Positions 4,222 to 54,780 of a DNA stretch of 64,000 nucleotides are shown here, piece by piece; the stretch's first letter is position 1; the number at the start of each line of letters is the position of its first letter. Position numbers and translations under genes: made by a program. Under the pieces are notes generated by a model that saw nothing but the letters and a program-made list of their open reading frames with translations, ran no database searches and was not told the DNA's origin. The stretch lies in IMG/VR virus record IMGVR_UViG_3300035670_000059, positions 1 to 64,000 of that record; one strand, written 5' to 3'. Source of the stretch: a virus.

Positions 4222-4256
4222 TAGTATTTATAATTGCAGATATGACAATTTTATAA

Positions 4257-28267: not shown

Positions 28268-29068
28268 ATGATTAGTTTAATGCAATTGCTAAAAGAAGTA
28301 CAAGGCAACCCCAAAGCAATAATTTTAGCGGGTGCACCAGGTGCGGGTAAAGGATTTATCTTAAAGGGTCTAGATTTAGGCGGATTAAAAGTCTTTAATC
28401 TAGACAATACTTTTGTAGACTTACTAAAACAAGCCAATATTTCTTTAGATTTAAAATCTCTTGGCCCCGAAGATAGAAGTGCAGCAGCTCAAGCAATGGT
28501 TCAAGCAACAACCAAACTAAAAAAAGAAACTATCCCACAAGCCATAGCTAATCAAGAATCATTTATATTAGATGGTACAGCTTCATCAGTTAAACAAACA
28601 AGTGAACTAAAATCTGAATTGGAAAATGCAGGATATGAAGTATTTATGCTATATGTTTATACTGATTTAGAACGTTCACTACAACAAAACCAAGATAGAT
28701 TTGAAAAATCTGGAGGCACCGATAGAAGCCTAGCCCCAGCTATTGTATTACGTACTTGGGCTGAGGTAACTAAAAATTACGATACTTACAAGTCAATGTT
28801 TGGTAATAATTTTGTATCGGTAGCTAATACTTTAAAGGATGAAAAGTTAAAAGATTTAGAATCTATTGTAGACAAATATCTTAGACCATTTACACCTAAA
28901 GATACTAAAGAAAAAGATCCTAAAGCACAAGCTCGAGCTAAAAAAGCAAAAGAACAATTAAATCAAGAAGTATCTGCTTTATTGCAAGACGAAGGGGTAG
29001 CTAATATAATTAACAATTCTGTTTCTAAGGAAGAAGCACAATCTAAAATACAACAATTCTTATCTTAA
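28268..29068 (+). CDS. P-loop kinase (zeta-toxin/AAA_33-like) with cargo-type leader
   Basis: GAPGAGKG, FILDGT, N-terminal MISLMQLLKE. Confidence 0.75.
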   Translation: MISLMQLLKEVQGNPKAIILAGAPGAGKGFILKGLDLGGLKVFNLDNTFVDLLKQANISLDLKSLGPEDRSAAAQAMVQATTKLKKETIPQAIANQESFILDGTASSVKQTSELKSELENAGYEVFMLYVYTDLERSLQQNQDRFEKSGGTDRSLAPAIVLRTWAEVTKNYDTYKSMFGNNFVSVANTLKDEKLKDLESIVDKYLRPFTPKDTKEKDPKAQARAKKAKEQLNQEVSALLQDEGVANIINNSVSKEEAQSKIQQFLS

Positions 29069-31101
29069 TGAATTCACTAGTAAAGGAAATAGTTAAAAAC
29101 TTACTACCCGAAGAGGAAAAAAAACAAACCACCGCACTATATGCAGGTGGTTTTAAACCTCCCACTGCGGGCCACTTTGATGTTGTTAAAGAAGCACTTA
29201 GACAAAACCCAGAAATAGATGAATTTATAATTTTTGTAGGTTCCAAAGAACGTGACGGTGTATCGCAAGATGAATCTTTATTGATTTGGGAGATATATAA
29301 CAAATATCTACCATTTAAGGTTAAAATAGAACCTAGTTCTTTACCACCAATTAAAGCAGTATATGATTTTGCAAAAGATCATCCCACAAGAGAAATATTG
29401 TGGATTTTAGGTGCTAGAGAAGATAATGAACAAGACTTTACTGATATTGGTTCACGCACCAAATCTATAACTAACTACCCAAACATTGAGGCTAGAACTA
29501 TTATAACAAAAGGTAGAGTATCAGGTACAGCTGCTAGAAATGCTTCTAAAGTATCATTTGAAAAATTTGAACCATTCCTACCTAGTGTTTTAACACCTGA
29601 AGAAAAACAGGAAGTATATCAAATAGTATCTGGTAAAATACAAGAAAATGATCCTAAAGTGGGCACCGGAAAAAAACCTAAAGGATCAGGTAGAAGATTA
29701 TACACAGATGAAGATCCTACAGATACTGTAAGTGTTAAATTTTCTACTAAACAAGACATTATAGATACTTTTAATAAAGCATCATTTAAATCCAAATCTC
29801 ATGCTCGCCAGTCTCAAATTATAAATTTGGTGCATCAAAGAGTAAGAGCAGCTTATGATAGAGCTAAAGATCCTGACGTAAAAAAACGCTTGAAAATAGC
29901 TTTAGACTATGCTGAACAAAGAAAAGAAGCATCCAAGGAAAAAACACAACGCTTGAAAGACCAAAAAGAAAATATAGATCCAAAATCTCAAGCTAAGCAT
30001 AAAGGTAAAGCTGCACCTTATGGTTCAGGATACAGTAAATTACAACTTGATGAAAATGCTTCATATTCTAACCATATTGATTATAAGCAAAAAATCAAGG
30101 CATTAACCAAACATATGATGGATAAAGGGATGAATATTGTTCCTTTACCTAAAGTAGTATTTAAACATGGAGATGAAGAAAATGCAAAACAATTTCTAGG
30201 TAAAACAGCTTACTATGACCCCGAAGCTATGGAAATTGTGTTGTATACAGAAGGTCGTCATCCCAAAGATATAGTACGATCATTTTCTCATGAAATGATT
30301 CACCACATCCAAAATTTAGAAGGTAGATTAGGTAATGTAGCTACAACTAATACATTAGAAGATGACCATCTAGATAAACTAGAACAAGAAGCTAATCTAA
30401 ACGGAACAATGACATTTAGAAATTGGACCGATAGTTTAAATGAAGCAATAGTTGGAAATAAAATTGTATGTGATAATTGTGGCTGGAGTTGGAATATAGA
30501 AGATGGGGGAAAAAATTTATTTGTATGTCATAAATGTGGACATGACAATGCCCATTTAAATGAAAAGAAATCTAAAGACCCATTCGGTCTAAACGCATAT
30601 GCTATGGAATTAGCCCGTTTAAGGGAAGAAGAAACAGAATACACAATATATTGCGATATGGATAGTGTATTAGTTGATTTTGATCGTGGATATCAAGAAT
30701 TAACAGGCATGACTAGCCAACAAGCGGATGCTAATGGAGTAGAAGCATTTTGGGATCCAATCTCTAAAGCAGGAGCTAAATTTTGGATCACATTACAATG
30801 GATGCCAGATGGAAAACAACTATGGAACTATATTAAAAAATATAATCCAATATTATTGTCTGCCCCATCACGCGAAGAATCTTCTAAATTGGGTAAAAGA
30901 GTTTGGGTAAAGCGAGAACTACCTGGTGTAAAACTTATTTTAAAATATGCTGCCCAAAAACAGGAATATGCTTCTCCAACTTCTATTCTAATAGATGATA
31001 GACAAAAAAATATAGACCAATGGGAAGCAGCAGGGGGAATTGGTATCTTACACACTAGCACCCCTAATACTATTAAACAGTTACAACAACTAGGACTATG
31101 A
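29068..31101 (+). CDS. multidomain polyprotein: nucleotidyltransferase + basic domain + HExxH metallopeptidase-like + Zn ribbon + HAD 5'-nucleotidase-like
   Basis: GGFKPPTAGH/SGTAAR; HEMIHH; CDNC..CHKC; YCDMDSVLVDF..LIDDR. Confidence 0.8.
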   Translation: MNSLVKEIVKNLLPEEEKKQTTALYAGGFKPPTAGHFDVVKEALRQNPEIDEFIIFVGSKERDGVSQDESLLIWEIYNKYLPFKVKIEPSSLPPIKAVYDFAKDHPTREILWILGAREDNEQDFTDIGSRTKSITNYPNIEARTIITKGRVSGTAARNASKVSFEKFEPFLPSVLTPEEKQEVYQIVSGKIQENDPKVGTGKKPKGSGRRLYTDEDPTDTVSVKFSTKQDIIDTFNKASFKSKSHARQSQIINLVHQRVRAAYDRAKDPDVKKRLKIALDYAEQRKEASKEKTQRLKDQKENIDPKSQAKHKGKAAPYGSGYSKLQLDENASYSNHIDYKQKIKALTKHMMDKGMNIVPLPKVVFKHGDEENAKQFLGKTAYYDPEAMEIVLYTEGRHPKDIVRSFSHEMIHHIQNLEGRLGNVATTNTLEDDHLDKLEQEANLNGTMTFRNWTDSLNEAIVGNKIVCDNCGWSWNIEDGGKNLFVCHKCGHDNAHLNEKKSKDPFGLNAYAMELARLREEETEYTIYCDMDSVLVDFDRGYQELTGMTSQQADANGVEAFWDPISKAGAKFWITLQWMPDGKQLWNYIKKYNPILLSAPSREESSKLGKRVWVKRELPGVKLILKYAAQKQEYASPTSILIDDRQKNIDQWEAAGGIGILHTSTPNTIKQLQQLGL

Positions 31102-32677: not shown

Positions 32678-33907
32678 ATGCTTAACGAGCGTAAACTTAC
32701 CAAAAATGAACTAGGCCAAAGAGATATTGCTCTTAAGGGTCTAGTTAAAAACAAACGCTCATTGGTTAAAAAATATGGTAAGGACGCAGAAAAAGTTATG
32801 TACGGAATAGCAACAAAACAAGCAAAACAGAAACAAGAAGCCATGAATCTAGAAAATCTCAAAAGCATGATAGAAGCTGCTCTTAAGAACCCAGATAAAG
32901 CCGATCTTAACAAAGACGGTAAATTATCTGATTATGAAGAGAAAAGAGGAGCAGCCATAGAAAAAGCTATGGTTAAAGAAGAAGAACAACCCGATGCAAT
33001 CGATACTGTAACATTAGATGTTCCTTTATTTATCCGTATGCTAGAATATGCTAAAGAGGAAGCAGCCGATGACATGGACTTACATGAATTAGCTACCAAA
33101 ACTATTGCTTTAAGTAAACAAAGAGGTATCTTATCTATGGAAGATTACGATACTTTAATCCCACCTGCAGATCAAATAGATGAAAATGTAGATGATATGG
33201 CTAAGGTATATTGGATGCAACAACTTAAACAAGGTAAAATAGACAAACTTCCAGATGATCCTAAAGAAGCATTTCTACAACAGATGATGAAAGATCAAAT
33301 GGATCATGATAAAGAAACTTTACGTAGAGAACGTGGTTTGGAAGAAGATTTAGATGTAGGACATCAAGATGATGAGCCAAACATGTTAAAATCTGATTTA
33401 TACCGTATAGTAAAGTATGGTATGGAACTATACCAAATGATGGATAAGTATGATGATATGCCTGGTGAAGTTGATTTTCCACATTGGTGGCAGTCTAAAG
33501 TAACTAAAGCTAAAGATATGATTGCTTCTGCTCACCACTATTTACAAGGTGAAGAGCAAGTAGCTCAAATCGATGCTATGATGATGGAAGAAAAATCTGA
33601 TGAGCTAAAAAAAGGTGATAAAGTATCACACAACAATATAGAAAAAGTAATTAAAAAAATAGTAGGTTCACACGCACTAGTACAAAAAGCTGAAAAAGAA
33701 AAAGGTGAATTTACAGACCCCACAGTTGAAAAAGTAGCAACCCACAAGTTAAAGAAACTTGAAGAATTAATTAGAGAAAAACTTACCGCAAAAACACCAA
33801 TGAAAAAATACATTGAAGATTTTGCTAAAAGTGATGCCCCACAATTCAAAGGCAAATCTAAAGAAAAAAAACGTGAAATGGCAATAGCTGCTAAATTATC
33901 CAAATAA
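32678..33907 (+). CDS. modular putative internal head polyprotein
   Basis: Short modules (EF-hand-like DLNKDGKLSDYE, SH3-like KGDKV) separated by VKEE/IDE/LEE/IRE. Confidence 0.7.
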   Translation: MLNERKLTKNELGQRDIALKGLVKNKRSLVKKYGKDAEKVMYGIATKQAKQKQEAMNLENLKSMIEAALKNPDKADLNKDGKLSDYEEKRGAAIEKAMVKEEEQPDAIDTVTLDVPLFIRMLEYAKEEAADDMDLHELATKTIALSKQRGILSMEDYDTLIPPADQIDENVDDMAKVYWMQQLKQGKIDKLPDDPKEAFLQQMMKDQMDHDKETLRRERGLEEDLDVGHQDDEPNMLKSDLYRIVKYGMELYQMMDKYDDMPGEVDFPHWWQSKVTKAKDMIASAHHYLQGEEQVAQIDAMMMEEKSDELKKGDKVSHNNIEKVIKKIVGSHALVQKAEKEKGEFTDPTVEKVATHKLKKLEELIREKLTAKTPMKKYIEDFAKSDAPQFKGKSKEKKREMAIAAKLSK

Positions 33908-35520: not shown

Positions 35521-36297
35521 ATGTGTAGCTGCGGATGTAATACTTGCGAAACTAAAATAACAGGGCCTTTACTTACAGAAGGTAAAGTAAAATCTTTACT
35601 ATCCGAAGGCCTACAATACCATATAGATAAACAAATACCTTTATTTGAAACAGTATATCGTATAGGTTCAGAAAAACATTTATCGTTAATCAAAGAAGCC
35701 CGCAAGATGTATTCTCGCGGCATTATTGATTTGTGTGAAGATGATGAACATTTAATCAAAACTCATTTAGGAGAATTTGGTTTATTCTATGAAATCGAAA
35801 TAGGAGATAAAGTAAAAGCAAGTAAAGAATATGGTGGTCTATCAGGTGAGGTAGTGAACATTAAAGGTTCATTTGTGGTAGTTAAAACTAAAGAAGGCAA
35901 CCAATCCTACCACGAATCTGACTTAATTGCTTTGAATAAAGAGGGAGAAAGCGTACCTTTAGATCTACCGATGCTAGAAGAAGATGAAGTAACTGAAGCT
36001 GAGTTTAGGGGTAAAGATGTTCCACTAAACAAACCAAAGCGTGGTGGAAGTAAAAAATTCTATGTTTACGTAAAAAATCCTAAAACTAAACGCGTAAAAA
36101 AAGTATCTTTTGGTGCTGCGGGTGGTGGGCAAAGTTTAAAAGTTAAAATACGAGACTCTAAAGCACGTAAAGCATTTGCTGCTCGTCATAGATGTTCAAG
36201 TAAAAAAGATAGAACAAGTTCTGGATATTGGAGCTGTAATCTACCAAGATATGCTCAAGCTTTAGGATTAGGTGCAAACATGAATACTTTCTGGTAA
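35521..36297 (+). CDS. modular putative internal head protein (SH3/KOW-like and basic C-terminal domains)
   Basis: LLTE, LLSE, VTE sites; IGDKV..GEVV; KKVSFG..AFAARHRC..YWSC. Confidence 0.7.
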   Translation: MCSCGCNTCETKITGPLLTEGKVKSLLSEGLQYHIDKQIPLFETVYRIGSEKHLSLIKEARKMYSRGIIDLCEDDEHLIKTHLGEFGLFYEIEIGDKVKASKEYGGLSGEVVNIKGSFVVVKTKEGNQSYHESDLIALNKEGESVPLDLPMLEEDEVTEAEFRGKDVPLNKPKRGGSKKFYVYVKNPKTKRVKKVSFGAAGGGQSLKVKIRDSKARKAFAARHRCSSKKDRTSSGYWSCNLPRYAQALGLGANMNTFW

Positions 36298-36298
36298 G

Positions 36299-37015
36299 AT
36301 GTCATACAATAGAACATATCAAATAAGCGGAGAAGCAGGTTTAGACACTACAATCACTCCTCAAGCAGATCTCATCTCAGATATTCGCTCAATTGAGGGA
36401 ATAACGATTGTAACATTCACCCCTAAAAACGAGGCAGATAGTGCAGCGAGCAATCCAAACCACGTTGGTATATTAAGTATAAAATTTGATACTTTTCCAT
36501 TCACCGAATTTGATAAAGATACTCAAATAAAAATTTTAGTTGATACAATTCGTAAAATGCCAGGTGTAAATTTCTTTAGAGCAAGCCAAGTAAATATACT
36601 AGAAACTCGATTAAAGTCGTTAGTTAAAGAAATGCTTTTGGAAAAAAAAACCAAAAGAGATAGATGCTTGCGTATAGCAGACCGCAAATTTGATAAACCT
36701 TCTGCTTACAAATCTGGAGCCGTAGTACGATGCCGTCAAGGTAAAATATGGAAAGGCGTTAAAGAAGAAATTGAATTTTTAAGCGAAGCAGAAAAAGAAA
36801 CACTACGTACATGGTTCAAACGCCAAGGTGCTCCAGGTAAAACAGGTGGTTGGGTAGATTGCAATTCTCCTATTCGCAAAGATGGAGAAATAGTAGGGTA
36901 CAAACCTTGTGGACGCCAAAAAGGTGAAGAACGAGCAAAGTATCCATCTTGTAGACCAACAGCTTCTAGATGTAAAGATAAAGGTAAAGGTAAAACATGG
37001 GGAAAAACAAAATAA
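36299..37015 (+). CDS. modular putative internal head protein with basic Cys-containing domains
   Basis: MLLE, VKEE, LSE sites; SAYKSGAVVRCR; GGWVDC..KPCGR..YPSCRP. Confidence 0.7.
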   Translation: MSYNRTYQISGEAGLDTTITPQADLISDIRSIEGITIVTFTPKNEADSAASNPNHVGILSIKFDTFPFTEFDKDTQIKILVDTIRKMPGVNFFRASQVNILETRLKSLVKEMLLEKKTKRDRCLRIADRKFDKPSAYKSGAVVRCRQGKIWKGVKEEIEFLSEAEKETLRTWFKRQGAPGKTGGWVDCNSPIRKDGEIVGYKPCGRQKGEERAKYPSCRPTASRCKDKGKGKTWGKTK

Positions 37016-37428
37016 TGAAACTACTTGACATATTAAACGAGGTAGAGCTAAACGAATGTCCTGCTCCAACCCAAAACATAGCACTTAACCTTGAGAATAG
37101 ACAGAAAGCTATTAACGAATATGGATACGGACCTCTAAATCCAAACGAACCAAACGAAAAGTTTTGGCAAGCCAAAGTGGATATGTGGAAGTTGGATTCG
37201 GCCGAAGAAGCTAAAAAATCACTATGCGGCAACTGTGCTGCTTTCGACATTACAACTAAAACACTAGATTGCATTGCTAAAGGAATAGGTAGTGATGGTG
37301 GAACAGAAGATCCATTTGATGTAATCGATGCCGGAAAATTAGGGTATTGTCGATTTTTGAAATTCAAATGCGCTGCGGCCCGAACATGCGATGCTTGGGT
37401 TGTTGGTGGTCCTTTAACAGATGACTAA
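37015..37428 (+). CDS. Cys-rich protein with HiPIP-like cysteine pattern and cargo-type leader
   Basis: ATG at 37015 (MKLLDILNEVELNE); CGNC..GYC..C....CDAW. Confidence 0.65.
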   Translation: MKLLDILNEVELNECPAPTQNIALNLENRQKAINEYGYGPLNPNEPNEKFWQAKVDMWKLDSAEEAKKSLCGNCAAFDITTKTLDCIAKGIGSDGGTEDPFDVIDAGKLGYCRFLKFKCAAARTCDAWVVGGPLTDD

Positions 37429-37699
37429 CCCATATACAAACACACCAATTACCCAAACTTCAGTTATACGAGAATTTAGTTCTGAAGTAGATCCAATGGA
37501 GCTAGTTTGGCACCAAGATGAAGAAGATCGTACTATTGAAATATTAGAGGGAGAAGGTTGGCAATTACAAAGAGATAATGAGTTGCCCTTGGTGCTTCAA
37601 AAAGGAGATATTATATTTATACCGGAATATCAAATACACAGAGTAATTAAAGGCAATACAAATTTAAAAATACAAATAACAAAACAATGGCGCAATTGA
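37421..37699 (+). CDS. cupin-fold protein
   Basis: WHQDEEDR..GDIIFIPEYQIHRV. Confidence 0.75.
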   Translation: MTNPYTNTPITQTSVIREFSSEVDPMELVWHQDEEDRTIEILEGEGWQLQRDNELPLVLQKGDIIFIPEYQIHRVIKGNTNLKIQITKQWRN

Positions 37700-37914
37700 A
37701 TAAACAGCTTAACAGAATGCAAGAACTTGCAGGAATTAATGTTAGTAACCCCGTAACTAAATTAATTGAAATTTTACAACAAGCTATAAAATTAGCGGAT
37801 GAAAATATTGATAAAGCTGATAATTTTGACTTAGTAGATTTTTCTCAAACTCTTGAAAAATATGTTAGTGAATTGAACGAAATAGGAAGTTTTGAAACTT
37901 CCATGCAAGAATAG
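37687..37914 (+). CDS. small protein with scaffold-like RMQELAGI leader
   Basis: Motif shared with scaffold C-terminus; TATTTATA at 37614. Confidence 0.7.
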   Translation: MAQLNKQLNRMQELAGINVSNPVTKLIEILQQAIKLADENIDKADNFDLVDFSQTLEKYVSELNEIGSFETSMQE

Positions 37915-37980: not shown

Positions 37981-38556
37981 ATGGCAAAACAAACTTTAAG
38001 CGAAGAATTTCGCAGAATGCAAAAACTAGCAGGTATCATTACCGAAGAGCAATATTTAAATGAAAATATTGAACAATTTGAAGATTATATATCTGGTATG
38101 TGGGATGCTAGTGTAAGCGATGAAATGGAAGAAGGAGAATATTTTGAAGGTGTATGGGAGAAAGAAGAATATGGAGATGAAGAAGCATACCCTAATGCTG
38201 ATGAATTTAATGCTCTATCAAAATATCTAGCTTCTGTAGGTGGTAAAGATACTTTAGAAGGTAATCCTGACATTAACGTAGAATTACTCCCTAATGGAGA
38301 TATTAAGTTTGGAGCTACTGTAACTTTTGATGAATCATCAGATGAAGGATATAAATTTGACCCCGCATCTTTCTTTTCAGCTATGGGTAGTAATGACCCA
38401 ACGGCTAAAGCTTTTATTCAAAATGTAAGAAATGCAGCTAAAGCTGATGTAGTAGATAGATATTTTATTGTAGATAAGCTAAAAAAGTACGCTCAAACCA
38501 ACCCAGAAGCTAAAGATAAACTTGAAGCTGCTATTGAATTTATATATAAAGGATAA
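37981..38556 (+). CDS. acidic protein with scaffold-like RMQKLAGI leader, flanked by 45-bp repeats
   Basis: MAKQTLSEEFRRMQKLAGIITEE..YLNE. Confidence 0.75.
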   Translation: MAKQTLSEEFRRMQKLAGIITEEQYLNENIEQFEDYISGMWDASVSDEMEEGEYFEGVWEKEEYGDEEAYPNADEFNALSKYLASVGGKDTLEGNPDINVELLPNGDIKFGATVTFDESSDEGYKFDPASFFSAMGSNDPTAKAFIQNVRNAAKADVVDRYFIVDKLKKYAQTNPEAKDKLEAAIEFIYKG

Positions 38557-38769: not shown

Positions 38770-39165
38770 ATGATAAAATTAACAAATTTACTAAAAGAGA
38801 CTCAATTAGAACAGTATAGGAAAGGTACGGGATATAAATTAACTAAAGCTCCCGATCCTGATGAAATACTAAAAGATATAAAGGATATTAATGGATACCT
38901 AGATCTATCTAGAAGTAACATAACTACTCTCCCAGATCAATTAGAAGTTGATGGTTATTTGAGTTTGTCTAATACTAAAATTCAATCTCTTCCAAAAGGA
39001 TTAGTAGTAAGAGGAGATTTAGATTTGCTCAATTGTAAAAATATTAAATCATTCCCATCTGATTTAATTGTTAACGGAAATCTTGTTTTAAACTCCAAAA
39101 ATTTTAATAAAGAAGAATTAAAAAAACAACTTCCTAATGTTAATAATGTTATAATAATGTCTTAA
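38770..39165 (+). CDS. leucine-rich-repeat-like protein with cargo-type leader
   Basis: LDLSRSNITTLP..LxVxGxL repeats; MIKLTNLLKE. Confidence 0.8.
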   Translation: MIKLTNLLKETQLEQYRKGTGYKLTKAPDPDEILKDIKDINGYLDLSRSNITTLPDQLEVDGYLSLSNTKIQSLPKGLVVRGDLDLLNCKNIKSFPSDLIVNGNLVLNSKNFNKEELKKQLPNVNNVIIMS

Positions 39166-40542: not shown

Positions 40543-41190
40543 ATGCGTCCTTACATTTATTTGGTTAAAAATCAACAAAATAAAATAGTTTATATTGGTC
40601 AACAAATTGGAACTAAATCCTTAAATGAATACAAAGGTTCTGGTTTACTGTTAAATAGAGCCTACAACAAATATGGTGAAAATTATTTCAAACGAGAAAT
40701 CATTGAATATTGTAATGTGGATGAATTAAATGATAAAGAAAAATTATACATAAAACAATATAATACAAAATTTCCACATGGATATAATTTAACCGAGGGT
40801 GGTGATGGAATGAAGGGATACACATATAACAATAATCAAAAACAAAATATATCTAATGCTAAAAATGGGCAAAAATATCCTAAAGAACATGGCGAAAAAA
40901 TAAGACAAGCTAAATTAGGTAAAAAACGAGATCTCGAAACTATAAATAAAATAATTCAAACTAAAGCATCCAAACATAATATTAAAATAGATTTAACTTT
41001 AAAAAACCAATCTAGAAGCAATTCTCAAAAAACAATACTGCAATATGATCTCCAAAATAATCTATTAAACGAATACCAATCCGCTCAAGAAGCAGGTAGA
41101 TGCTTAGGAAAATCAGGAAATAGTATAGCAGATTGTGCCTCCGGAAGACAATCCACAGCTTATGGTTTTGTTTGGAAATACAGAGAATAG
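40543..41190 (+). mobile_element. free-standing GIY-YIG homing endonuclease with NUMOD3/NUMOD1-like C-terminus
   Basis: YIY..VYIGQ, YKGSG, GYNLTEGGDG, ILQYDL..TAYGFVWKY; TATTTATA at 40522. Confidence 0.85.
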
Positions 41191-41492: not shown

Positions 41493-41912
41493 ATGAAAAA
41501 AATGGTTATAGTGAGCGGGTATTTTAACCCACTCCATAAAGGTCATCTTGAACTGTTCCATAGAGCAAAAGATTATGGTCACAAGTTATTTGTAATAGTT
41601 AACTCTGATCATCAACGTTTACTTAAGGGATCAAAGGAGTTTCAATCTGAGTTGGAGCGTCTAATAATTATACGTAACTTAAGAGTTGTAGATAATAGTA
41701 TGATTTCTATTGATAGAGACAAAACACAATGTGCTACTCTTAAATATCTTTCAGATGTTTTGGGGGGAGAATATAAACTTGCATTTGCAAACGGTGGTGA
41801 TCAAAGTAATGATACTATTCCAGAAACACAGGTTTGCGTTGATAATGAAATAGAATTGATTGATGGATTGGGAGCTAAAGTTCAATCATCAAGTTGGCTA
41901 TTAAACAAATAA
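41493..41912 (+). CDS. cytidylyltransferase-like protein (HxGH family)
   Basis: SGYFNPLHKGH, VIVNSD, FANGGD, QSSS. Confidence 0.88.
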   Translation: MKKMVIVSGYFNPLHKGHLELFHRAKDYGHKLFVIVNSDHQRLLKGSKEFQSELERLIIIRNLRVVDNSMISIDRDKTQCATLKYLSDVLGGEYKLAFANGGDQSNDTIPETQVCVDNEIELIDGLGAKVQSSSWLLNK

Positions 41913-41916
41913 GAAT

Positions 41917-42447
41917 ATGAAGATAGGATTGACAGGAACAATGAGTGTAGGAAAAACTACATTAGTTAAGGCATTAAAAAAATTACCACAATTTAAGAAT
42001 TATAAATTTGCTACTGAACGTTCAAAATATTTAAGAGATTTAGGTATCCCATTAAATACTGATTCTACATTAAAAGGTCAAACCGTGTTTTTGGCTGAAC
42101 GTTGTGCTGAACTAATGCATGATAATCTAATTACAGATCGAACTATTATTGATGTTATAGCATTTACTAAAAGTGCTAAATCAATTAATGTGTTAGATAA
42201 AGATGAATTTGAACAATATGCTTCTCTGTTTGTGGGAGAATATGATTATATATTCTATATTTCACCTGAAGGATTACCTATAGAAGATAATTCAGTTAGA
42301 GAAACTAATGCTGAATATAGGGATTTAATTGACTTTAACATACAACATTTATTGCAATCACATTCTCATAGATTTAAATCTATGTATGCTATCAGTGGTT
42401 CAACCCCGGAACGAATACAGCAGATTCTGAATGTTATCAATCTCTGA
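41917..42447 (+). CDS. AAA_28/NadR-type nucleoside/nucleotide kinase
   Basis: GTMSVGKTT, TDRTIID, EDNSVR. Confidence 0.8.
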   Translation: MKIGLTGTMSVGKTTLVKALKKLPQFKNYKFATERSKYLRDLGIPLNTDSTLKGQTVFLAERCAELMHDNLITDRTIIDVIAFTKSAKSINVLDKDEFEQYASLFVGEYDYIFYISPEGLPIEDNSVRETNAEYRDLIDFNIQHLLQSHSHRFKSMYAISGSTPERIQQILNVINL

Positions 42448-47124: not shown

Positions 47125-47161
47125 GATTTCTTTAATATTTATAAACAAATATATTTCTTTG

Positions 47162-48028
47162 ATGAAAATCAAACATAGCAAATACAAAAACACGGGTATA
47201 TTATTTGAGTTACTTGTTAGACAGGTAACTATAGATACCTTAAAAGGAGTAGATTCACCCGCTATTGACATTATGAAAAAATATTTTGTCAAAAGTGAAC
47301 TAGGGCGAGAGTATAAATTATACGAGTCTATTCTAAAATCTAAAGTATTAAACGAAAGCAGAGCAAATACTGTCGTTAGCACTATTTTAGAATCTTCTGT
47401 TAACTTAAACAAAAGTACTTTAAAGAGACAGAAATATAATCTAATCAAAGAAATTAAATCACACTACGATTTAGATACATTTTTTAACATCAAAATCAAA
47501 AACTATAAAGAACTAGCTTCTTTGTATATGTTGATTGAAGGTGCAAATGGTACTTCTTACGTTGCTCCTTCCCAAATGGTTGATTGCAAAATCACACTAT
47601 TAGAATTTTTAACTAAGCAAGAAATTAAATCACAGGATTCAAGAGAAAACGTAATAGAAGAATTCCAAGCATACGATAAAGATTTAAGAATTCTCACATA
47701 CAAAATTCTTTTAGAGAAATTCAACGAGAAATACGATTCTATTTCTATTGAACAAAAACAAATCCTAAAAGAATTCATCAACTCTGTAGACTCTGCCCCA
47801 CATTTAAGAGAATTCTACAACACTAAAATTACTGAACTAAAAGAACACTTAAGTAAAAGCACTAAAACAATCCAAGATCCAGCTACTAAAGTTAAGGTTG
47901 AAGAAATAGCTAAACACTTAGTTGAGCTTGACAAAACTGCTAAAGTTAATGATGATCATTTAGTGGATTTAATGCAATATTATGAACTAGTTCAAGAAAT
48001 TAGAAAAGCAAATGGGGTACAAATATAA
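47162..48028 (+). CDS. conserved head-module protein
   Basis: KHSKYKNTGILFELL; between portal and protease; TATTTATA at 47136. Confidence 0.75.
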   Translation: MKIKHSKYKNTGILFELLVRQVTIDTLKGVDSPAIDIMKKYFVKSELGREYKLYESILKSKVLNESRANTVVSTILESSVNLNKSTLKRQKYNLIKEIKSHYDLDTFFNIKIKNYKELASLYMLIEGANGTSYVAPSQMVDCKITLLEFLTKQEIKSQDSRENVIEEFQAYDKDLRILTYKILLEKFNEKYDSISIEQKQILKEFINSVDSAPHLREFYNTKITELKEHLSKSTKTIQDPATKVKVEEIAKHLVELDKTAKVNDDHLVDLMQYYELVQEIRKANGVQI

Positions 48029-48317
48029 ATTATCCGATAAGTTAAAAGAAATGTCCACCTCTGGTGGAGCAGGTGGTTATTTAACTAAATACGCGTTTGC
48101 TAAAAAAGTTAGAGCACCTAAAGAACTAGAAAAACTAGGATATACTCCCGTTGAAGAAAATATAGGTGCAACTTTAGGACCAGGTCCAAAAGCAGGACCC
48201 GAAGGTGTTAAAGATAACTACTACGTTAAGAAATTCCAATACAAGCTGGTTCCTAAAGATAAAAACGGAAACTACGTGCAGAAAGGCTCTAGTCTAGAAG
48301 TTAAAAATTTATTTTAA
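48012..48317 (+). CDS. putative internal head protein
   Basis: LKE|MSTSGGAGGY and VEE sites. Confidence 0.7.
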   Translation: MGYKYKLSDKLKEMSTSGGAGGYLTKYAFAKKVRAPKELEKLGYTPVEENIGATLGPGPKAGPEGVKDNYYVKKFQYKLVPKDKNGNYVQKGSSLEVKNLF

Positions 48318-48318
48318 T

Positions 48319-48564
48319 ATGTATAAGTATAGAATTAAAGAACAAGGGGATGAAACTCTAAACCAATTCCATGATCAACGCATCATGGCATTTGATTCTA
48401 TAGAAGCTAGACTTGAAGACATAAAAAAACTACTGCGTCAAGGTAAAATTGAAACTATAGCATACTATAGAGAAAACCCAACCAGTTATACAGTAGTAAA
48501 AGGAACAGATTTGATTAACGATTACATAAACGATATAGAAATTTTACTAAAAGGAGAAGAATAA
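48319..48564 (+). CDS. hypothetical head-module protein
   Basis: Coupled ORF; YKY leader like upstream gene. Confidence 0.7.
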   Translation: MYKYRIKEQGDETLNQFHDQRIMAFDSIEARLEDIKKLLRQGKIETIAYYRENPTSYTVVKGTDLINDYINDIEILLKGEE

Positions 48565-50237
48565 TGACTCTACAAGAACAATACAATTTGATTAAAGCAG
48601 GAAAAGGTCACAAAGGTATATTCCTTACTGAGGCTAAAAAGCAATTCCCTGACATGTTGACAAATCCGATGGGATTTGAAGAAGCATCTAAAATGTTGAA
48701 AACACGTGGTGTGATTTCCGAAAATTATGTTGATTTAAAACCAATCAATACAATTGAGGCTTCTCCAAAAGCTGCTTGGGAAAATAAATTTGCTCAATTC
48801 TTAGCTGAAGAAGCTAAAGCAGAAGAAAAAAAACCAACTAAAGAAGTAGAAGATATTCAAGCCCACAACTACGACTACAAAGACAAAACTAACCTTGACA
48901 ACCAAATTGGACAAGAAGTATTGAATGGTCTATATTTTGAAGGCAGAGAAAACCCAGACAAAACATTAGACGAGCTTCGTAAAATTGTAGAAAAAAACTT
49001 AGCTAAAGACGGACAGTACTACATGAAAAATGCTGCATTTGGTGTTAAAGGATTAGGATACAAAGAAACAGAAGTAGAAGAAGTAGCTGGAAAGCATGCT
49101 TCATCTGGCTATTCTGATAAATTAAAGAAAATGGTTAAAGAATCTTTGGTTAAAGAATCTTCTGATAATCTTGATCCCTTAAGAAAAATGGGATATTCTG
49201 ATTCGGATATTGAAGATTTTATGGATGAATTTAAGCAAGGAGGTAGTAAATTACCTAAAAAGGTAAGTGATTATCTAGATGGTTTGTATCAAACTAAATT
49301 AGGTGCTCTAAAAACAAAATCTTGGTGGTTAAAAGAAGAAGATAAAGATTACACTAAGCTTCCATTCGTGGGTGTTGAAACTTTAAAGAAAGTACTTCAA
49401 CAAGTTGATAAAATTAACATTCAGGTAGGCCCAATGTCTTCAACTGAAGTAAAAACTGAAGCTGATCTAGTAAGAGTACTTATGGGCGAACTTATGTTTA
49501 AGCAAGTAAGACCAGGTGTATATAAGCTAGTAGGACCAAATGATAGTAAAGTTACTATGGGTAAAGGAAGTTTAGATGAAGCTTCTGACTTTGAAGAGAA
49601 AATGGCTCAACTTAGAATGCTTCAAATGCAGAAAAAAGCAGGTGTTGCTCCTGATCAAAAAGTGATTAATAAAAAGCAAACATTAACACAGAAGTTAAAC
49701 ATGCTTAAAAAAGCATATTTTGATTTAATTTCTGCTATGGAGAAAGAATCAGACCTAGAATTTGCTGTATCTGGTGATTGGTACCAAGAACAATTAGATG
49801 ATCTAGAAAACTCAATTGGTGATTTAGAAAACAAAATTCAATCTATTAACGAAAATGCAATTGGTGAAGAAGTAGAAATAACAGCTGAAGTTGAAAATGT
49901 TGAAGAAGCTGAACCAAAAGCTGAAAAGAAAGTAGTTAAAAAAGAATCTTTAGATAGTGAACTAGCCGAAATCGATACTCAAGCTGGAATCGTTGCTATG
50001 GAAGCTAAATTGGACAAAATCAGCGAAATGATTTCTACTAAAATGGAACGTTTAAGCATGATTGAAGAAGATGCTAATCTAGCGGATCTAGTAGATAAAG
50101 TTAAAGTAAAAGAAATGCAAAAAGAAATCAAAATCTTAGAAAAAGCTAAAGCTAAGATGGAGAAAATGTACGAAAAAATGAATGGTAAAGCATATACCAA
50201 AGAAATGGTAGACGAATCCTCATTTGACAATGAATAA
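48564..50237 (+). CDS. modular putative internal head protein
   Basis: Many LxE/VKE sites separating short domains. Confidence 0.7.
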   Translation: MTLQEQYNLIKAGKGHKGIFLTEAKKQFPDMLTNPMGFEEASKMLKTRGVISENYVDLKPINTIEASPKAAWENKFAQFLAEEAKAEEKKPTKEVEDIQAHNYDYKDKTNLDNQIGQEVLNGLYFEGRENPDKTLDELRKIVEKNLAKDGQYYMKNAAFGVKGLGYKETEVEEVAGKHASSGYSDKLKKMVKESLVKESSDNLDPLRKMGYSDSDIEDFMDEFKQGGSKLPKKVSDYLDGLYQTKLGALKTKSWWLKEEDKDYTKLPFVGVETLKKVLQQVDKINIQVGPMSSTEVKTEADLVRVLMGELMFKQVRPGVYKLVGPNDSKVTMGKGSLDEASDFEEKMAQLRMLQMQKKAGVAPDQKVINKKQTLTQKLNMLKKAYFDLISAMEKESDLEFAVSGDWYQEQLDDLENSIGDLENKIQSINENAIGEEVEITAEVENVEEAEPKAEKKVVKKESLDSELAEIDTQAGIVAMEAKLDKISEMISTKMERLSMIEEDANLADLVDKVKVKEMQKEIKILEKAKAKMEKMYEKMNGKAYTKEMVDESSFDNE

Positions 50238-50835
50238 GCAATTACTTATAGAAACCCACCCTATTAAAATTTCTGCATCCCCACTAACTGAAAATGTTGG
50301 TGGGGTAAAGAAACCTCTAATAGTAGAAGGTATACTAGCTACAGCCGAAGTTAAAAACGGTAACGGTAGATATTATGCCCGTGATTTGTGGGATCGTGAA
50401 ATGAAAAAGTACTCTGAGCTAATCAAGCAAAGACGTGCTATGGGTGAATTAGATCACCCTGAATCCCAAGTTATTAACTTAAAAAATGTATCTCATATCA
50501 TCTCCGATTACTGGTGGGATGGAGATAATGTAATGGGTAAAATTGAAGTACTTAATACTCCATCTGGTCAAATTTTAGAAGCACTAATCCGTAACAACGT
50601 TACCGTAGGTGTATCTTCCCGAGGAATGGGCTCATTAGAACAAAATGGTAACGTAATGGAAGTACAAGATGATTTCGAATTATTATGTTGGGATTTTGTT
50701 TCCACTCCATCCAATCCAGGCTCATATATGTCTGTATTGCGAGAAGGTAAAGAATATCCTACCACAAACTATAGTAAAGTAAATAGTATTATACACGAAA
50801 TACTCTGCTCTAAAGGCAGTTGCCCAATATTTTAA
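50230..50835 (+). CDS. prohead maturation protease (T4 gp21-like)
   Basis: NGNGRYY, GELDHP, VSH, GVSSRGMGSL, WDFVSTPS; ATG at 50230. Confidence 0.95.
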   Translation: MNKQLLIETHPIKISASPLTENVGGVKKPLIVEGILATAEVKNGNGRYYARDLWDREMKKYSELIKQRRAMGELDHPESQVINLKNVSHIISDYWWDGDNVMGKIEVLNTPSGQILEALIRNNVTVGVSSRGMGSLEQNGNVMEVQDDFELLCWDFVSTPSNPGSYMSVLREGKEYPTTNYSKVNSIIHEILCSKGSCPIF

Positions 50836-51047: not shown

Positions 51048-52454
51048 ATGACAAACAGAGACTTGCTTAAAGAAGCAATCGCTGATGCAAAAGCTGTTAA
51101 AGAAACTGCTATTGCAAATGCAAAAGCTGCTTTAGAAGAGGCATTTACTCCACATTTGAAGTCTATGTTGGCCGCTAAATTAGAAGAAATGGATAAAGAC
51201 GATGACGTTGAAGAAGCCATGAAAGCTAAGAAAGAGAAAGACATGATGGAAGAATTTGAAGTAAATGAAGTAAAGGATGAAATCGAAGAAGAATTTGATT
51301 TAAACGAAATCCTTGCGGAACTTGAAGAAGGTGAAGACAAAGACGAAATGTACGAAGCTGAAGAAGAAGAAATGGAAGCCGGAGAAGAAGGCGAAATGGA
51401 AGCTGGCGAAATGGAAGATGTAGAAATCGACCTAGAAGACATGACCGAAGATGATCTCAAATCCTTTATCGAGGATGTAATTGCCGACATGGTAGCTGCA
51501 GGTGAATTGGAAGCTGGAGAAGAAATGGAAGCCGAGATGGGCGACATGGAAGCTGAAGAGGAAATGGGCGACATGGAGGAATTAGACGAAATGGATGAAG
51601 TAAGTTGGAACGAGAAAAACAATCCTGCAAGAGGTGCTACTTTAGATAAGTTAGCCCCAACAAAAGTAGGACAATCTACTTCCGCTTATGCTGTTAACGA
51701 AGTTGAAGAATCTTTAGCAGATCCACAATTATTAGATGTTGCAGCAGGTGTTGCAGGATTAATTGGTGGTGGTGCTGGATTAGCTTATGTAATTGATGCT
51801 TTAAAATCAGGTAAAGCTGGTAAAGCTGGAGCAGCATTAGCTAATGCGCTTGAAAAAGCAGCAGGTTCCGCCGGAGTTAACAAACCTACAGGTACAAAAA
51901 TGATGGAAGAGAAAGAAGAAGTGGAAGAAGTAACAGGAGCAAGTGGTGGATATGATCCATCTAGTGCTGCAGGTGCTGGTTTAGAAAACCTTATTGATGG
52001 TGTTAAAGCCCTTATTAAAAAAGGTGGACCAGCTGCTAAAAAGGCTTACGCTGTGTTACAACAGTTAGGTGCTGGAGCTGCTGCTGGTATGAAAGAAGGT
52101 GAAGACGAAATGAGCGAAATGGAAGAACTTAAGAAAGAACTTCAAGAAGTTAATTTGTTGAACGCTAAACTTTTATACACCAACAAAATCTTCAATTCCA
52201 AAACCCTTAACGAAAGCCAAAAACTTAGAGTATTGAAGGCATTTGATAAGGCTACATCCGTAAAAGAAGCAAAAGTTATCTATGAAACATTAAACGAAGG
52301 AATGACATCTAAAAATGTTAAAACTTCTATGGCAAATGAAATCAAAGGTAGTGCTTCAAAAGCTACAGGGTTTATTAGCGAAAGCAAACACCCAATTGTA
52401 GAGGTTGATCCAATGGTAGCCAGATGGCAAAAACTAGCTGGTATCAATAAATAA
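51048..52454 (+). CDS. prohead scaffold/core protein
   Basis: Acidic; between protease and MCP; LLKEAIADAKAV N-terminus, EVNLLNAKLLY, C-terminal RWQKLAGI. Confidence 0.85.
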   Translation: MTNRDLLKEAIADAKAVKETAIANAKAALEEAFTPHLKSMLAAKLEEMDKDDDVEEAMKAKKEKDMMEEFEVNEVKDEIEEEFDLNEILAELEEGEDKDEMYEAEEEEMEAGEEGEMEAGEMEDVEIDLEDMTEDDLKSFIEDVIADMVAAGELEAGEEMEAEMGDMEAEEEMGDMEELDEMDEVSWNEKNNPARGATLDKLAPTKVGQSTSAYAVNEVEESLADPQLLDVAAGVAGLIGGGAGLAYVIDALKSGKAGKAGAALANALEKAAGSAGVNKPTGTKMMEEKEEVEEVTGASGGYDPSSAAGAGLENLIDGVKALIKKGGPAAKKAYAVLQQLGAGAAAGMKEGEDEMSEMEELKKELQEVNLLNAKLLYTNKIFNSKTLNESQKLRVLKAFDKATSVKEAKVIYETLNEGMTSKNVKTSMANEIKGSASKATGFISESKHPIVEVDPMVARWQKLAGINK

Positions 52455-52490: not shown

Positions 52491-54110
52491 ATGAGCTTAC
52501 AATCTCTTTTAGAAAGCGCAAACCCATACCACTCTGTACAGAGTGATGCTGCTAGATTATCTAGCAAGTGGGAAAAAACAGGATTGCTAGAAGGTTTGGC
52601 TGGTACACATAAGAATAACATGAGTATCATCCTTGAAAACCAAGCTAAGCAATTAGTAACTGAAACATCTCAAACTGGTGGTGGTACTGCTTCAACAGGT
52701 ACATTCACTGCAGGTGTAGGTGAGCAGTGGGCAGGAGTTGCTCTTCCATTGGTAAGAAAAGTATTTGGTCAAATTGCAGCGAAAGAATTCGTTTCTGTTC
52801 AACCAATGAACTTACCTTCTGGTTTAGTATTCTACCTTGATTTCCAGTACGGAACTACAAAAGCTCCATTTGCTGCTGGTGATTCTTTATATGGTGCAAC
52901 TGGTGGAAACGATCCATTTGGTAACACTAACTCTGGTGGTTTCTACGGTGCTGGTAGATTCGGATATTCTATCAACAACACTGCTTCTGCAGTAACTGCT
53001 ACTACTGCTTCTGCAGTATGGTCTGATATGGACTTTGATTCTGATTATTCTGCTTCTGCAGTTGCTGGTGAATATAAGACAGTTAGTGTAGCTGTATCTG
53101 GATTACCTAATTACGATGCTGAAGGTATTAGAGCATTTGCTTTAGCTTCTGGATCTCTTTCTAATATCAATTTACCACAATTTACTAAAATTGTTGGATC
53201 TAACTTGGTATTCATCGTTTCTGGTTCTCAAGCTCCAGTTCAGTCTTCTACTGTAACTGTAACTTACCAATTACAACCACTTGATAAATTCAGAGGTGAT
53301 TTTGAAGATGGAAACAATGCCTTGAACGGTAACAACACTCCAATTTCAATCCCTGAAATCAACGTACAGATGAAATCTTCTGCTATCGTTGCTAAAACTC
53401 GTAAATTGAAGGCTGTATGGACTCCTGAATTTGCTCAGGATCTTAACGCTTACCATGCTCTTGATGCTGAAGCTGAATTGACTTCTATCCTTTCTGAGTA
53501 CATTTCTTTGGAAATTGACCTTGAAATCTTGGATATGTTGATGGATTCTGCTGCTGCTGGAACTGAAGTATGGTCTGCAGTTAACAACCAAGCTATCGTT
53601 GACAACGGAGCTAACGGAACTATCTCTAACTTAGGCTTCTATAACAGCCAAGGTCAGTGGTTCCAAACTCTTGGAACTAAAATCCAGAAGTTAAGCAACA
53701 TTATTCACCAGAAAACTCTTCGTGGTGGTGCAAACTTCATGGTATTGTCTCCAGCTGTTTCTACAATCATCGAATCTATCCCTGGATTTGCAGGTGATGT
53801 TGATGGTGATGTTGAAAAGTCAACTTACGCATTCGGAGTACAGAAAATTGGTGCTTTAGGCGGTGGTAAGATTAAGGTTTACAAAAACCCTTACATGCTT
53901 GAAAACCAAATCTTGTTAGGATTTAGAGGAACTCAATTCCTTGAGTCTGGTGCCGTATTTGCTCCTTATATTCCATTGATCATGACTCCACTTGTGTACG
54001 ATCCAGATACCTTTACTCCAAGAAAAGGTCTATTGACTCGTTACGCTAAGAAGATGGTACGTCCTGAATTCTATGCGACTATTAAGGTTAATGGTTTGAA
54101 TACTCTTTAA
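52491..54110 (+). CDS. major capsid protein (T4 gp23-like)
   Basis: LENQ, LPLVRKVF, VQPMNLPSG, AKTRKLKAVWTPEFAQDL, APYIPL, TRYA. Confidence 0.97.
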   Translation: MSLQSLLESANPYHSVQSDAARLSSKWEKTGLLEGLAGTHKNNMSIILENQAKQLVTETSQTGGGTASTGTFTAGVGEQWAGVALPLVRKVFGQIAAKEFVSVQPMNLPSGLVFYLDFQYGTTKAPFAAGDSLYGATGGNDPFGNTNSGGFYGAGRFGYSINNTASAVTATTASAVWSDMDFDSDYSASAVAGEYKTVSVAVSGLPNYDAEGIRAFALASGSLSNINLPQFTKIVGSNLVFIVSGSQAPVQSSTVTVTYQLQPLDKFRGDFEDGNNALNGNNTPISIPEINVQMKSSAIVAKTRKLKAVWTPEFAQDLNAYHALDAEAELTSILSEYISLEIDLEILDMLMDSAAAGTEVWSAVNNQAIVDNGANGTISNLGFYNSQGQWFQTLGTKIQKLSNIIHQKTLRGGANFMVLSPAVSTIIESIPGFAGDVDGDVEKSTYAFGVQKIGALGGGKIKVYKNPYMLENQILLGFRGTQFLESGAVFAPYIPLIMTPLVYDPDTFTPRKGLLTRYAKKMVRPEFYATIKVNGLNTL

Positions 54111-54134: not shown

Positions 54135-54160
54135 GAGGCGCATTTTGCGCCTCTTTTTTT
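54135..54160 (+). terminator. intrinsic terminator after MCP
   Basis: GAGGCGCA-TTT-TGCGCCTC-T7. Confidence 0.85.
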
Positions 54161-54192
54161 ATATGTATAACCGACACGAATTATTCTGGGCT

Positions 54193-54780
54193 ATGAAAAT
54201 ATGTAAAAGATGTAATATTGAAAAACCATTAAACGAATTTTTTTCTCGAAAAGGTGAAAAAGACGGCAAACATAGATATTGTAAACTATGTTTAAAACAT
54301 GAAAATGACAATTGGTACCAAAACACTAAACATCAAAGAATAAACTACTATAAAACCTACCGTGAACAAAATAAAGAGTATTTTAACCAATATTCAAATA
54401 TACATTATCACACCAAAAAGGAATTATACAGAGAGTGGGAAAAAAACAAATATGCCACCGATTTTGAATTTCGCATAAAACATTTAACAGCAGGACGTAT
54501 CCATGCCGCTTTATCCACTTATCAATCCCTAAAAAAAGACAGAACAATAGAATACCTAGGGTGTACTATATCCGAATACTGTGATTATCTAGAATCTAAA
54601 TTTGATTCTAATATGACATGGGAAAATCAGGGAGTATATTGGCATATTGACCACATCAGACCTATTGCTTCATTTGATTTAACAGATGAAGAGCAATTAT
54701 ACCAATGTTTCCACTACACTAATACCCAGCCAATGGAAAAAACGGAAAATAGATTAAAAAGCGACAAATATTTAAAGTAA
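54193..54780 (+). mobile_element. free-standing HNH endonuclease
   Basis: CKRC..CKLC Zn motif, WHIDHIRP..NTQPM..N..KS; ATG at 54193; TATGTATA variant at 54162. Confidence 0.8.

Follow-up and report, generated by a model that had tools for sequence, protein, structure and literature searches.

A phage polyprotein with prohead-protease-type sites at its module joints: putative capsid cargo of a T4-like virus

The open reading frame (ORF) at 29068-31101 of a 64,000-nucleotide stretch of viral DNA (positions 1 to 64,000 of IMG/VR record IMGVR_UViG_3300035670_000059, hereafter the window) encodes a chain of folded modules that are parted by disordered linkers carrying the tripeptide [LIVM]-x-E. 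In our view the chain is probably a polyprotein that is loaded into the capsid and cut by the phage's own S77 prohead protease into separate enzymes for injection into the host. This proposal was first made in an earlier note on the same DNA. The part of it that concerns protease-type joints stands, as homologue indels, N-terminal leaders and the motif pattern across the window all agree, while cleavage, packaging and injection are steps that we infer. Because these lines of evidence coincide with an S77 protease, a Gp23 capsid protein and a T4-type portal in the same genome, a polyprotein with protease joints is the best reading of the ORF. The source record is 113.7 kb long and about 70% complete, and the T4-type head module in the window comprises the large terminase, Portal_T4 (Pfam E 1e-69), the gp21-family S77 prohead protease, an acidic scaffold-like gene and the Gp23 capsid protein. 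Features and their coordinates are collected in Table 1.

Table 1. Features of the polyprotein locus, the head module and the other jointed ORFs in the window.
Feature	Position	Strand	Details
Zeta-toxin/AAA_33-type P-loop kinase	28268..29068	+	Pfam Zeta_toxin E 4e-17
Kinase leader	28268-28297	+	10 aa, ends L-L-K-E
Polyprotein ORF	29068..31101	+	open, 677 aa
Polyprotein leader	29068..29112	+	15 aa, ends L-P-E; candidate capsid-targeting sequence
Nucleotidyltransferase module	29113..29646	+	TAGH 33-36, SGTAARN 152-158, ends I-Q-E
Basic module, mostly helical	29647..29970	+	residues 194-301, ends Q-K-E
Basic disordered mini-module	29971..30054	+	28 aa, residues 302-329, ends L-D-E, pLDDT <50
Minimal zincin metallopeptidase module	30055..30444	+	HEMIH 408-412, EQEAN 439-443, ends L-N-E
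Zn-ribbon module	30445..30564	+	CDNCG 468-472, CHKCG 487-491, ends L-N-E
Helix element	30565..30627	+	21 aa, residues 500-520, ends L-R-E
NT5C-type HAD 5'(3')-deoxyribonucleotidase module	30628..31101	+	DMDSV 530-534
Modular ORF	32678-33907	+	tblastn breakpoints cluster at own sites 66, 101, 137, 169, 223, 304, 363
Modular ORF	35521-36297	+	tblastn breakpoints cluster at own sites 85, 153-159
Modular ORF	36299-37015	+	tblastn breakpoints cluster at own sites 102, 111-115, 156-163
Presumed prohead-core genes 47159, 48012, 48319, 48564	47159..50237	+	between portal and protease genes
Prohead protease, T4 gp21 family (S77)	50224..50835	+	Peptidase_S77 E 1.4e-31; phrog_207 E 9e-58
Acidic scaffold-like protein	51048..52454	+	between protease and capsid genes; position as T4 gp22
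Gp23-type major capsid protein	52491..54110	+	Pfam Gp23 E 3e-70; N-terminal propeptide with four motif sites

Motif sites mark the module edges of the polyprotein

The earlier note had placed domain boundaries at six tripeptides: IQE (residues 191-193), QKE (299-301), LDE (327-329), LNE (457-459), LNE (497-499) and LRE (518-520, followed by EE). Three independent criteria, namely homologue indels, the predicted local distance difference test (pLDDT) of an AlphaFold model, and retention of the motif in diverged homologues, confirm that all six are module edges. The polyprotein has more than 5,800 homologues, of which the 120 closest were used to read BLAST break-points, and the diverged set consisted of 150 representatives of 50%-identity clusters. 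Alignments of the close homologues break at residues 193/194, 320-327, 456-462, 494-499 and 521/522. Homologue forms of 505, 545, 706, 802, 843, 877, 951 and 1046 aa have whole modules present, absent or replaced between successive [LIVM]-x-E tripeptides. Raw BLAST end-points are fuzzy (42% fall within 3 residues of a site versus 12% at random), and gapped alignment to the minimal 505-aa form with extraction of module edges was used instead. By inspection, the inserts listed relative to this form carry the motif on both flanks, one in the most divergent homologue being less clear. The alignment of homologues that the earlier note had suggested thus gave a clean result, with modules gained and lost at the sites.

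The motif also persists where the sequences have diverged. In the 150-representative set, the right edge of the nucleotidyltransferase is [LIVMF]xE exactly in 79 of 121 cases and within 3 residues in 111 of 121, the left edge of the zincin keeps the motif exactly in 82/95, and that of the Zn ribbon has it in 43/45. The edges retain the motif irrespective of the module that adjoins them; the middle residue is free and P3 also varies. Representatives range from 219 to 1547 aa with shuffled module order, and the window protein has six to eight modules. In the AlphaFold model (mean pLDDT 80), values below 50 are confined to residues 13-16, 191-227, 300-330, 460-462, 496-505 and 512-522, and the named sites lie within or directly adjoin these stretches. 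Three other sites (40-42, 50-52 and 73-75) sit in helices or strands of the first domain with a pLDDT of ~97.

A different account of the same joints is that the ORF encodes an uncut multi-domain cytoplasmic fusion for nucleotide metabolism, whose linkers are a by-product of recombination through short microhomology or some other linker or docking motif. A 10-bp direct repeat, TTTAAATGAA, which encodes L-N-E and flanks the Zn ribbon at 30435 and 30555, fits this account. However, across 80 related loci the left edge of the zincin has Glu at P1 and L/I/V at P3 in 80/80, and its synonymous codons follow the ordinary usage of the gene (TTA 0.69, AAT 0.78). Selection therefore acts on the peptide and not on the DNA, and DNA microhomology was rejected as the main cause of the joint motif, as codon use at the joint is that of the gene body. 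The variation of P3 and of the middle residue likewise speaks against an uncut fusion. Recombination would also leave unexplained the avoidance of the motif inside modules and the separate kinase described below, stand-alone modules retain a motif-ending leader, and superoxide dismutase (SOD), ADP-ribosyltransferase (ART), kinase and peptidase modules have no functional reason to form one chain. We regard an uncut fusion as unlikely.

Beyond the polyprotein, the earlier note had described ORFs 32678, 35521, 36299 and 48564 as punctuated in the same way. This holds for the first three, where the breakpoints of tblastn matches in the 80 related loci cluster at the ORFs' own motif sites (Table 1). 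ORF 48564 fits in part. A 60-aa piece, residues 199-258, is gone from most homologues and lies exactly between V-K-E198 and L-K-E258, but the ORF is otherwise mostly collinear, much less modular, and has no modules in common with the polyprotein family.

Modules of the polyprotein and its relatives

The domains named in the earlier note, a nucleotidyltransferase (TAGH), an HExxH domain, a Zn ribbon and a HAD phosphatase, hold on the basis of motifs, fold matches and phrog_2643, and the nucleotidyltransferase, zincin and HAD modules all have conserved catalytic motifs. The nucleotidyltransferase module has a Rossmann-like fold and carries the H/TxGH and SxTxxR motifs. Its best Foldseek match is PPAT (E 3e-7, target TM 0.71-0.78), followed by NaMN/NMN adenylyltransferases at a target TM of 0.60-0.65. 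As it scores under every curated cut-off (Pfam 15.9 bits versus 21; NCBIfam CoaD 22.8 versus 103 and NMNAT 19.8 versus 127), its substrate, and with it the choice between NMNAT and PPAT, is not assignable. The basic module behind it, with helices at 227-301 and a pLDDT of ~75, is missing from the 545-aa homologues and elsewhere replaced by other modules; an Atlas search with it returned viral hypothetical proteins only.

The zincin module is found in every long family member examined; neither its HExxH nor the E-x-E-A further downstream varies among 47 long representatives. Folded alone, it gives a minimal zincin with a pLDDT of 82. The assignment draws on VIA-align and motifs: VIA Z scores, which are middling values, are 7.5 for Wss1, 7.4 for SPRTN, 7.3 for PprI/IrrE and 6.8 for ArdC, with oligoendopeptidase F also near the top and zincins only at the head of the list. 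Pfam peptidase models give no match at E 0.1, and Foldseek is weak (E 0.02).

The Zn ribbon is present or absent as a unit and is precisely missing from 505-aa forms such as P0092. Behind it, the helix at 508-517 sits between two low-pLDDT stretches, and in P0081 a 165-aa module is inserted directly behind the 21-aa element that contains it. This element behaves like a leader of the nucleotidase module. In Flavobacterium phage immuto, the nearest cultured relative, the stand-alone nucleotidase opens with a leader ending L-L-E that resembles it. The nucleotidase module matches phrog_2643 (E 8e-29), has the DxDxV nucleophile motif and the fold of the human mitochondrial deoxyribonucleotidase, and scores below the Pfam NT5C cut-off (13.3 versus 24.8). 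It is C-terminal in 59/61 representatives.

Relatives have added further modules, including Fe/Mn superoxide dismutase, zeta kinase, ART-PolyVal, Tox-ART-HYD1, DUF6934, DUF5661 and DUF6782. ART-PolyVal occurs in 2/47 long representatives and Tox-ART-HYD1 in 1/47, and neither is in the window's polyprotein. The superoxide dismutase of P0232 (1547 aa) is complete and spans residues 617-813 (Sod_Fe_N E 2e-18, Sod_Fe_C E 2e-28); an antioxidant enzyme is unexpected as presumptive virion cargo. The window's kinase recurs inside P0232, where I-K-E precedes it, and at the front of P0226. A zeta-kinase region also hits a PHROG whose annotation is minor head protein.

Leaders on the polyprotein, its modules and the adjacent kinase

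The kinase, the stand-alone modules and the polyprotein all begin with T4-like leaders of 6-15 aa that end in the motif. In T4, a 10-aa capsid-targeting sequence (CTS) ending in L/I-X-E loads the internal proteins IPI-III and Alt (PMC9026906, PMC3012670). The polyprotein leader, whose residues 13-16 fall below a pLDDT of 50 just ahead of strand 1 of the fold, is present in 89/115 representatives that begin with the nucleotidyltransferase, with the motif within it in 88/115. At locus L033, a module is fused upstream and the leader is kept internally. The earlier note had called the adjacent kinase tagged, and its 10-aa leader, M-I-S/K-L-x-x-L-L-x-E, is indeed conserved in 66/66 related loci. 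Stand-alone zincin genes carry either a 6-aa leader or a near-identical 10-aa leader of the kinase type, and they end exactly at the module's usual right edge.

Several small ORFs of the window also have N-terminal peptides of note. The one at 38770-39165 opens with the kinase-type leader M-I-K-L-T-N-L-L-K-E and that at 36997-37428 with a 15-aa leader ending I-L-N-E and then L-N-E; both are possible capsid cargo. Two others (37687-37914 and 37981-38556) share the N-terminal peptide R-M-Q-E/K-L-A-G-I, and the C-terminus of the scaffold-like protein (52425-52454) is a similar R-W-Q-K-L-A-G-I-N-K. The common peptide could be a second head-targeting or scaffold-mimic tag.

The prohead protease and the motif pattern across the window

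The earlier note had a prohead protease at 50230, and this gene is of the gp21-type S77 family; the phage also encodes the T4 portal and the Gp23 capsid protein, the latter made with a propeptide. Its S77 profile match begins 18 nt upstream of TTG 50224, across one TAG (50206-50237). The true start is likely ATG 50230; translation from there would yield a leader of 8 aa with L-I-E at its end, equivalent to the LIE-9 site of T4 gp21 (PMC9026906). The gene overlaps the end of ORF 48564. In the capsid protein, the mature T4 gp23* N-terminus aligns at about residue 55, between ILE49 and VTE58. S77 was found in 8/10 related records, including cultured immuto and all that are at least 41% complete, and the two records without it are fragments (32-38% complete).

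T4 gp21 cuts after L/I-X-E, fragmenting the core proteins and trimming cargo and shell proteins (PMC9026906). In the window, 47159 (17 motif sites versus 7.5 expected, P 5e-4), 51048 (32 versus 18.7, P 1e-3) and 48564 (24 versus 16.3, P 0.017) are among the most motif-enriched genes, an enrichment in head-core genes that agrees with the fragmentation of core proteins by T4 gp21. The interiors of the polyprotein after its first domain hold 0 sites versus 5.3 expected (P 0.002), and the mature kinase, with 0 versus 4.1 (P 0.008), is the window's most depleted gene. Family-wide, the observed/expected ratio inside modules is 0.34-0.71 (zincin 0.34, basic module 0.43, nucleotidase 0.55), and for the mature kinase in its 66 related loci it is 0.43.

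This pattern bears on two further explanations. In the first, the main rival to our reading, the chain is a self-processing polyvalent protein, whose embedded zincin cuts the [LIVM]-x-E joints in the capsid or after injection. The constant presence of the zincin in long members with an invariant HExxH and downstream Glu favours this idea, as do its own two edges, which are the most strongly conserved L-N-E sites, and its fold, which is closest to Wss1, SPRTN, IrrE and ArdC. Passages of PMC5512222 also propose that polyvalent proteins are freed by such metallopeptidase domains. However, leaders ending in the same motif are also found on the capsid protein, scaffold-like protein, protease and kinase, none of which has a zincin, and ORFs 32678, 35521 and 36299 are jointed without one, although cleavage in trans is possible. 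Enrichment of the motif in the head core is predicted by the substrate rule of S77 and not by a zincin rule, and the joint motif is the rule measured for T4 gp21 (PMC9026906). Self-processing therefore seems quite unlikely to us.

The second explanation is that the chain is head-internal structural or scaffold material, loaded and cut, whose pieces would help in assembly or in condensing the DNA before being expelled or retained. DNA binding by the basic module and the basic peptide is conceivable, and most T4 core-protein fragments leave the head (PMC9026906). Nevertheless, the catalytic motifs of three modules are conserved, the scaffold-like proteins show the opposite motif pattern, and module interiors avoid the cut motif, which implies that intact folded products matter. 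Such a structural role is very unlikely.

Proposed pathway, points against it and implications

In the reading that we favour, a capsid-loaded polyprotein cut by the S77 protease, the L-x-E-ending leader would send the protein into the prohead core, as the T4 CTS does for IPI-III and Alt. Once activated in the prohead, the gp21-type S77 protease would cleave behind each exposed Glu. Besides the leader, the predicted products comprise three enzymes (a nucleotidyltransferase of ~20 kDa, a zincin of ~15 kDa and a nucleotidase of ~18 kDa), as well as a basic protein, a basic peptide, the Zn ribbon and a short helix. These pieces would remain with the DNA and enter the host upon infection. The product of the kinase gene, which overlaps the polyprotein start, is probably capsid cargo too. 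As a joint needs just three linker residues, modules could be swapped in frame, and such swapping at joints may have produced the very large combinatorial family. For the role in the host, the earlier note had suggested action on nucleotides, NAD or RNA ends, possibly against host defence; our own guesses are the proteolysis of a host factor and an early chemistry of the nucleotide or NAD type.

Several points weigh against this reading. The total of [LIVM]xE sites in the ORF is not above chance (10 seen versus 10.8 expected from composition), so their number is uninformative and their position alone is informative. Homologue sequences are related, and the family-wide counts are not independent events. 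The QKE site has a non-canonical P3; it is a true edge, given that the 28-aa piece behind it recurs at other positions in other proteins, standing alone behind other joints in P0248, P0260, P0130, P0235 and P0203. In immuto, motif sites occur inside the zincin module, whose right edge has no Glu. Leaders are absent from 26/115 representatives, whose starts are genuine (a stop codon lies just upstream) and whose joints are kept, so the leader is not the sole route in. The polyprotein gene has replication-type neighbours, primase and exonuclease, with the head module 15-20 kb away. This neighbourhood, the leaderless forms and the chance-level site count would also suit an uncut fusion. In addition, an active-looking zincin in every long member examined could do the cutting, and the cut specificity of S77 in this lineage is extrapolated from T4. 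A virion proteome, N-terminal sequence or cleavage assay was not found for the phage or its relatives, and in Atu_ph07 the sole counterpart is a distant nucleotidase with no leader and no annotation as a virion protein. Finally, a recurrent element, ATATTTATAA, lies upstream of the kinase gene, the portal gene and ~15 other genes. Its use as a late promoter to time expression was dropped, because it precedes the portal gene but also PhoH and a homing endonuclease gene and hence carries no timing information.

A broader proposal is evenly balanced in our judgement: that aquatic T4-like phages have a general plug-and-play cargo system, in which any small module behind a short leader or joined through [LIVM]-x-E is loaded, released by the protease and injected, and that the >5,800-member family, which is abundant in freshwater and marine viromes, is a large unrecognised class of virion-delivered effectors. 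If so, in-frame exchange at cut sites would involve nucleotidyltransferase, zincin, nucleotidase, kinase, SOD and ART modules together with dozens of unknown ones. Should the chain indeed be loaded and cut, the T4 internal-protein mechanism of one tag for one protein would widen to a combinatorial delivery format. A single gene would provide several enzymes as soon as infection begins, and the cost of three residues per joint would explain fast cargo evolution. Polyvalent proteins would gain a concrete mechanism of release, one recognisable in the sequence itself, and virion-delivered effectors would become predictable in thousands of uncultured phage genomes. The natural leaders and linkers also suggest themselves for loading foreign proteins into T4-type capsids. 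As immuto is a cultured relative, the idea is directly testable.

Comparison with known systems

One of the two closest parallels is provided by T4 IPI, IPII, IPIII and Alt (PMC9026906, PMC3012670), which share with the present system a T4-type head module with S77 and the L/I-X-E cut rule. In both, a short N-terminal leader with a hydrophobic-x-Glu ending is found on unrelated proteins, and cargo genes are scattered beyond the head module. T4 cargo also includes an enzyme, the ADP-ribosyltransferase Alt, and ART modules occur in this family. The differences lie in architecture. T4 cargo consists of single, end-trimmed proteins, whereas the chain here can string together seven or more unrelated modules, with a site per joint and combinatorial shuffling. 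The leader differs from the T4 CTS in sequence and, for the polyprotein, in length (15 aa, and 10 aa on the kinase). No Pfam or PHROG match links the polyprotein ORF to the T4 IPI-III/Alt families, and the ART modules in relatives belong to other clades.

Polyvalent proteins, the other close parallel, as described in passages of Iyer, Burroughs, Anand, de Souza and Aravind 2017 (PMC5512222), resemble this family in having many unrelated effector-type domains per phage polypeptide. They have a zincin-like metallopeptidase as their commonest domain, ART-PolyVal modules and a predicted delivery with the DNA. According to the same passages, their link to the head is mainly through MuF or late-gene context and their release is proposed to occur through their own peptidases. 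In contrast, the joints here follow the prohead-protease rule. For the polyprotein, neither MuF (Pfam, PHROG) nor the Pfam polyvalent-peptidase models gave a match, and its neighbours are primase, exonuclease and kinase genes. The two Aravind-lab papers propose virion packaging of such enzymes; cut sites at domain joints are mentioned in none of their searched passages, those of PMC5512222 included.

Many head proteins of phiKZ and SPN3US are processed behind Glu by a gp21-related protease and ejected into the host (PMC5694885, PMC9026906). Their motif is S/A-X-E with a small P3, their protease belongs to another subfamily and processing is mostly the removal of propeptides; exchangeable enzyme modules strung together with a site per joint are not described there. 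At the level of modules, the HExxH module shares a minimal zincin fold and an HExxH...E ligand set with ArdC, Wss1/SPRTN and IrrE. ArdC is likewise transferred with incoming DNA, and SPRTN too has a Zn-binding subdomain behind its protease. Yet the module is just 11-16% identical to these proteins and lacks the ssDNA-binding N-domain of ArdC. The C-terminal module is related to stand-alone phage deoxyribonucleotidases through phrog_2643, and the N-terminal module to NadR/NMNAT- or PPAT-type enzymes through its motifs and PPAT/NMNAT fold. Unlike the free enzymes, both are modules of a jointed chain and fall below the curated Pfam/NCBIfam cut-offs. Full-text literature searches found no description of such a jointed cargo polyprotein. 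What differs from T4 CTS cargo and from polyvalent proteins is that every joint has a prohead-protease-type site, at which modules are exchanged combinatorially. The best reading is that T4 internal-protein logic is combined with polyvalent-protein architecture.

The locus in relatives and other genes of the window

Upstream of the polyprotein lie primase, PD-(D/E)XK exonuclease and then the kinase, whose stop codon overlaps the polyprotein start. Across the 80 related loci, tblastn reveals no break in the collinearity of primase, exonuclease and ORF 31098. Immuto has the same gene order with the nucleotidase as a separate gene, and the equivalent locus (L001 4215-7848) holds another module set. 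The gene at the kinase position there carries GD(I/L)D, a motif that typifies Pol-beta-type nucleotidyltransferases, and this motif also lies within the first ~280 aa of immuto's 907-aa polyprotein, which has a second HExxH (H-E-I-E-H) close to its C-terminus.

The recurrent upstream element has an extended form, ATATTTATAA(C/T)AA, ahead of 17 + strand genes; its distance to the start is 6-26 nt for 16 of them and 74 nt for 60493. It occurs on the + strand at 4225, 6791, 9886, 18044, 21072, 25663, 28246, 31681, 32040, 40522, 42450, 45200, 47136, 54820, 55548, 59076 and 60412, and gene 47159 is also among those preceded by it. Its core 8-mer has 36 occurrences versus 19 expected. The extended form is promoter-like, with a resemblance to an inverted T4 late -10 box.

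A second cytidylyltransferase-like gene at 41493-41912 is of the RfaE domain II/glycerol-3-phosphate cytidylyltransferase type and scores above the TIGR00125 cut-off. It is followed by a small P-loop protein at 41917-42447. Unlike the jointed nucleotidyltransferase, their products have no leader and no joints, and both may be ordinary metabolic genes. Homing-endonuclease-type genes are found at 40543-41190 (GIY-YIG/HNH, phrog_314 E 2e-34) and at 54145-54780 (endonuclease VII/HNH, phrog_1035), the latter directly behind the major capsid gene.

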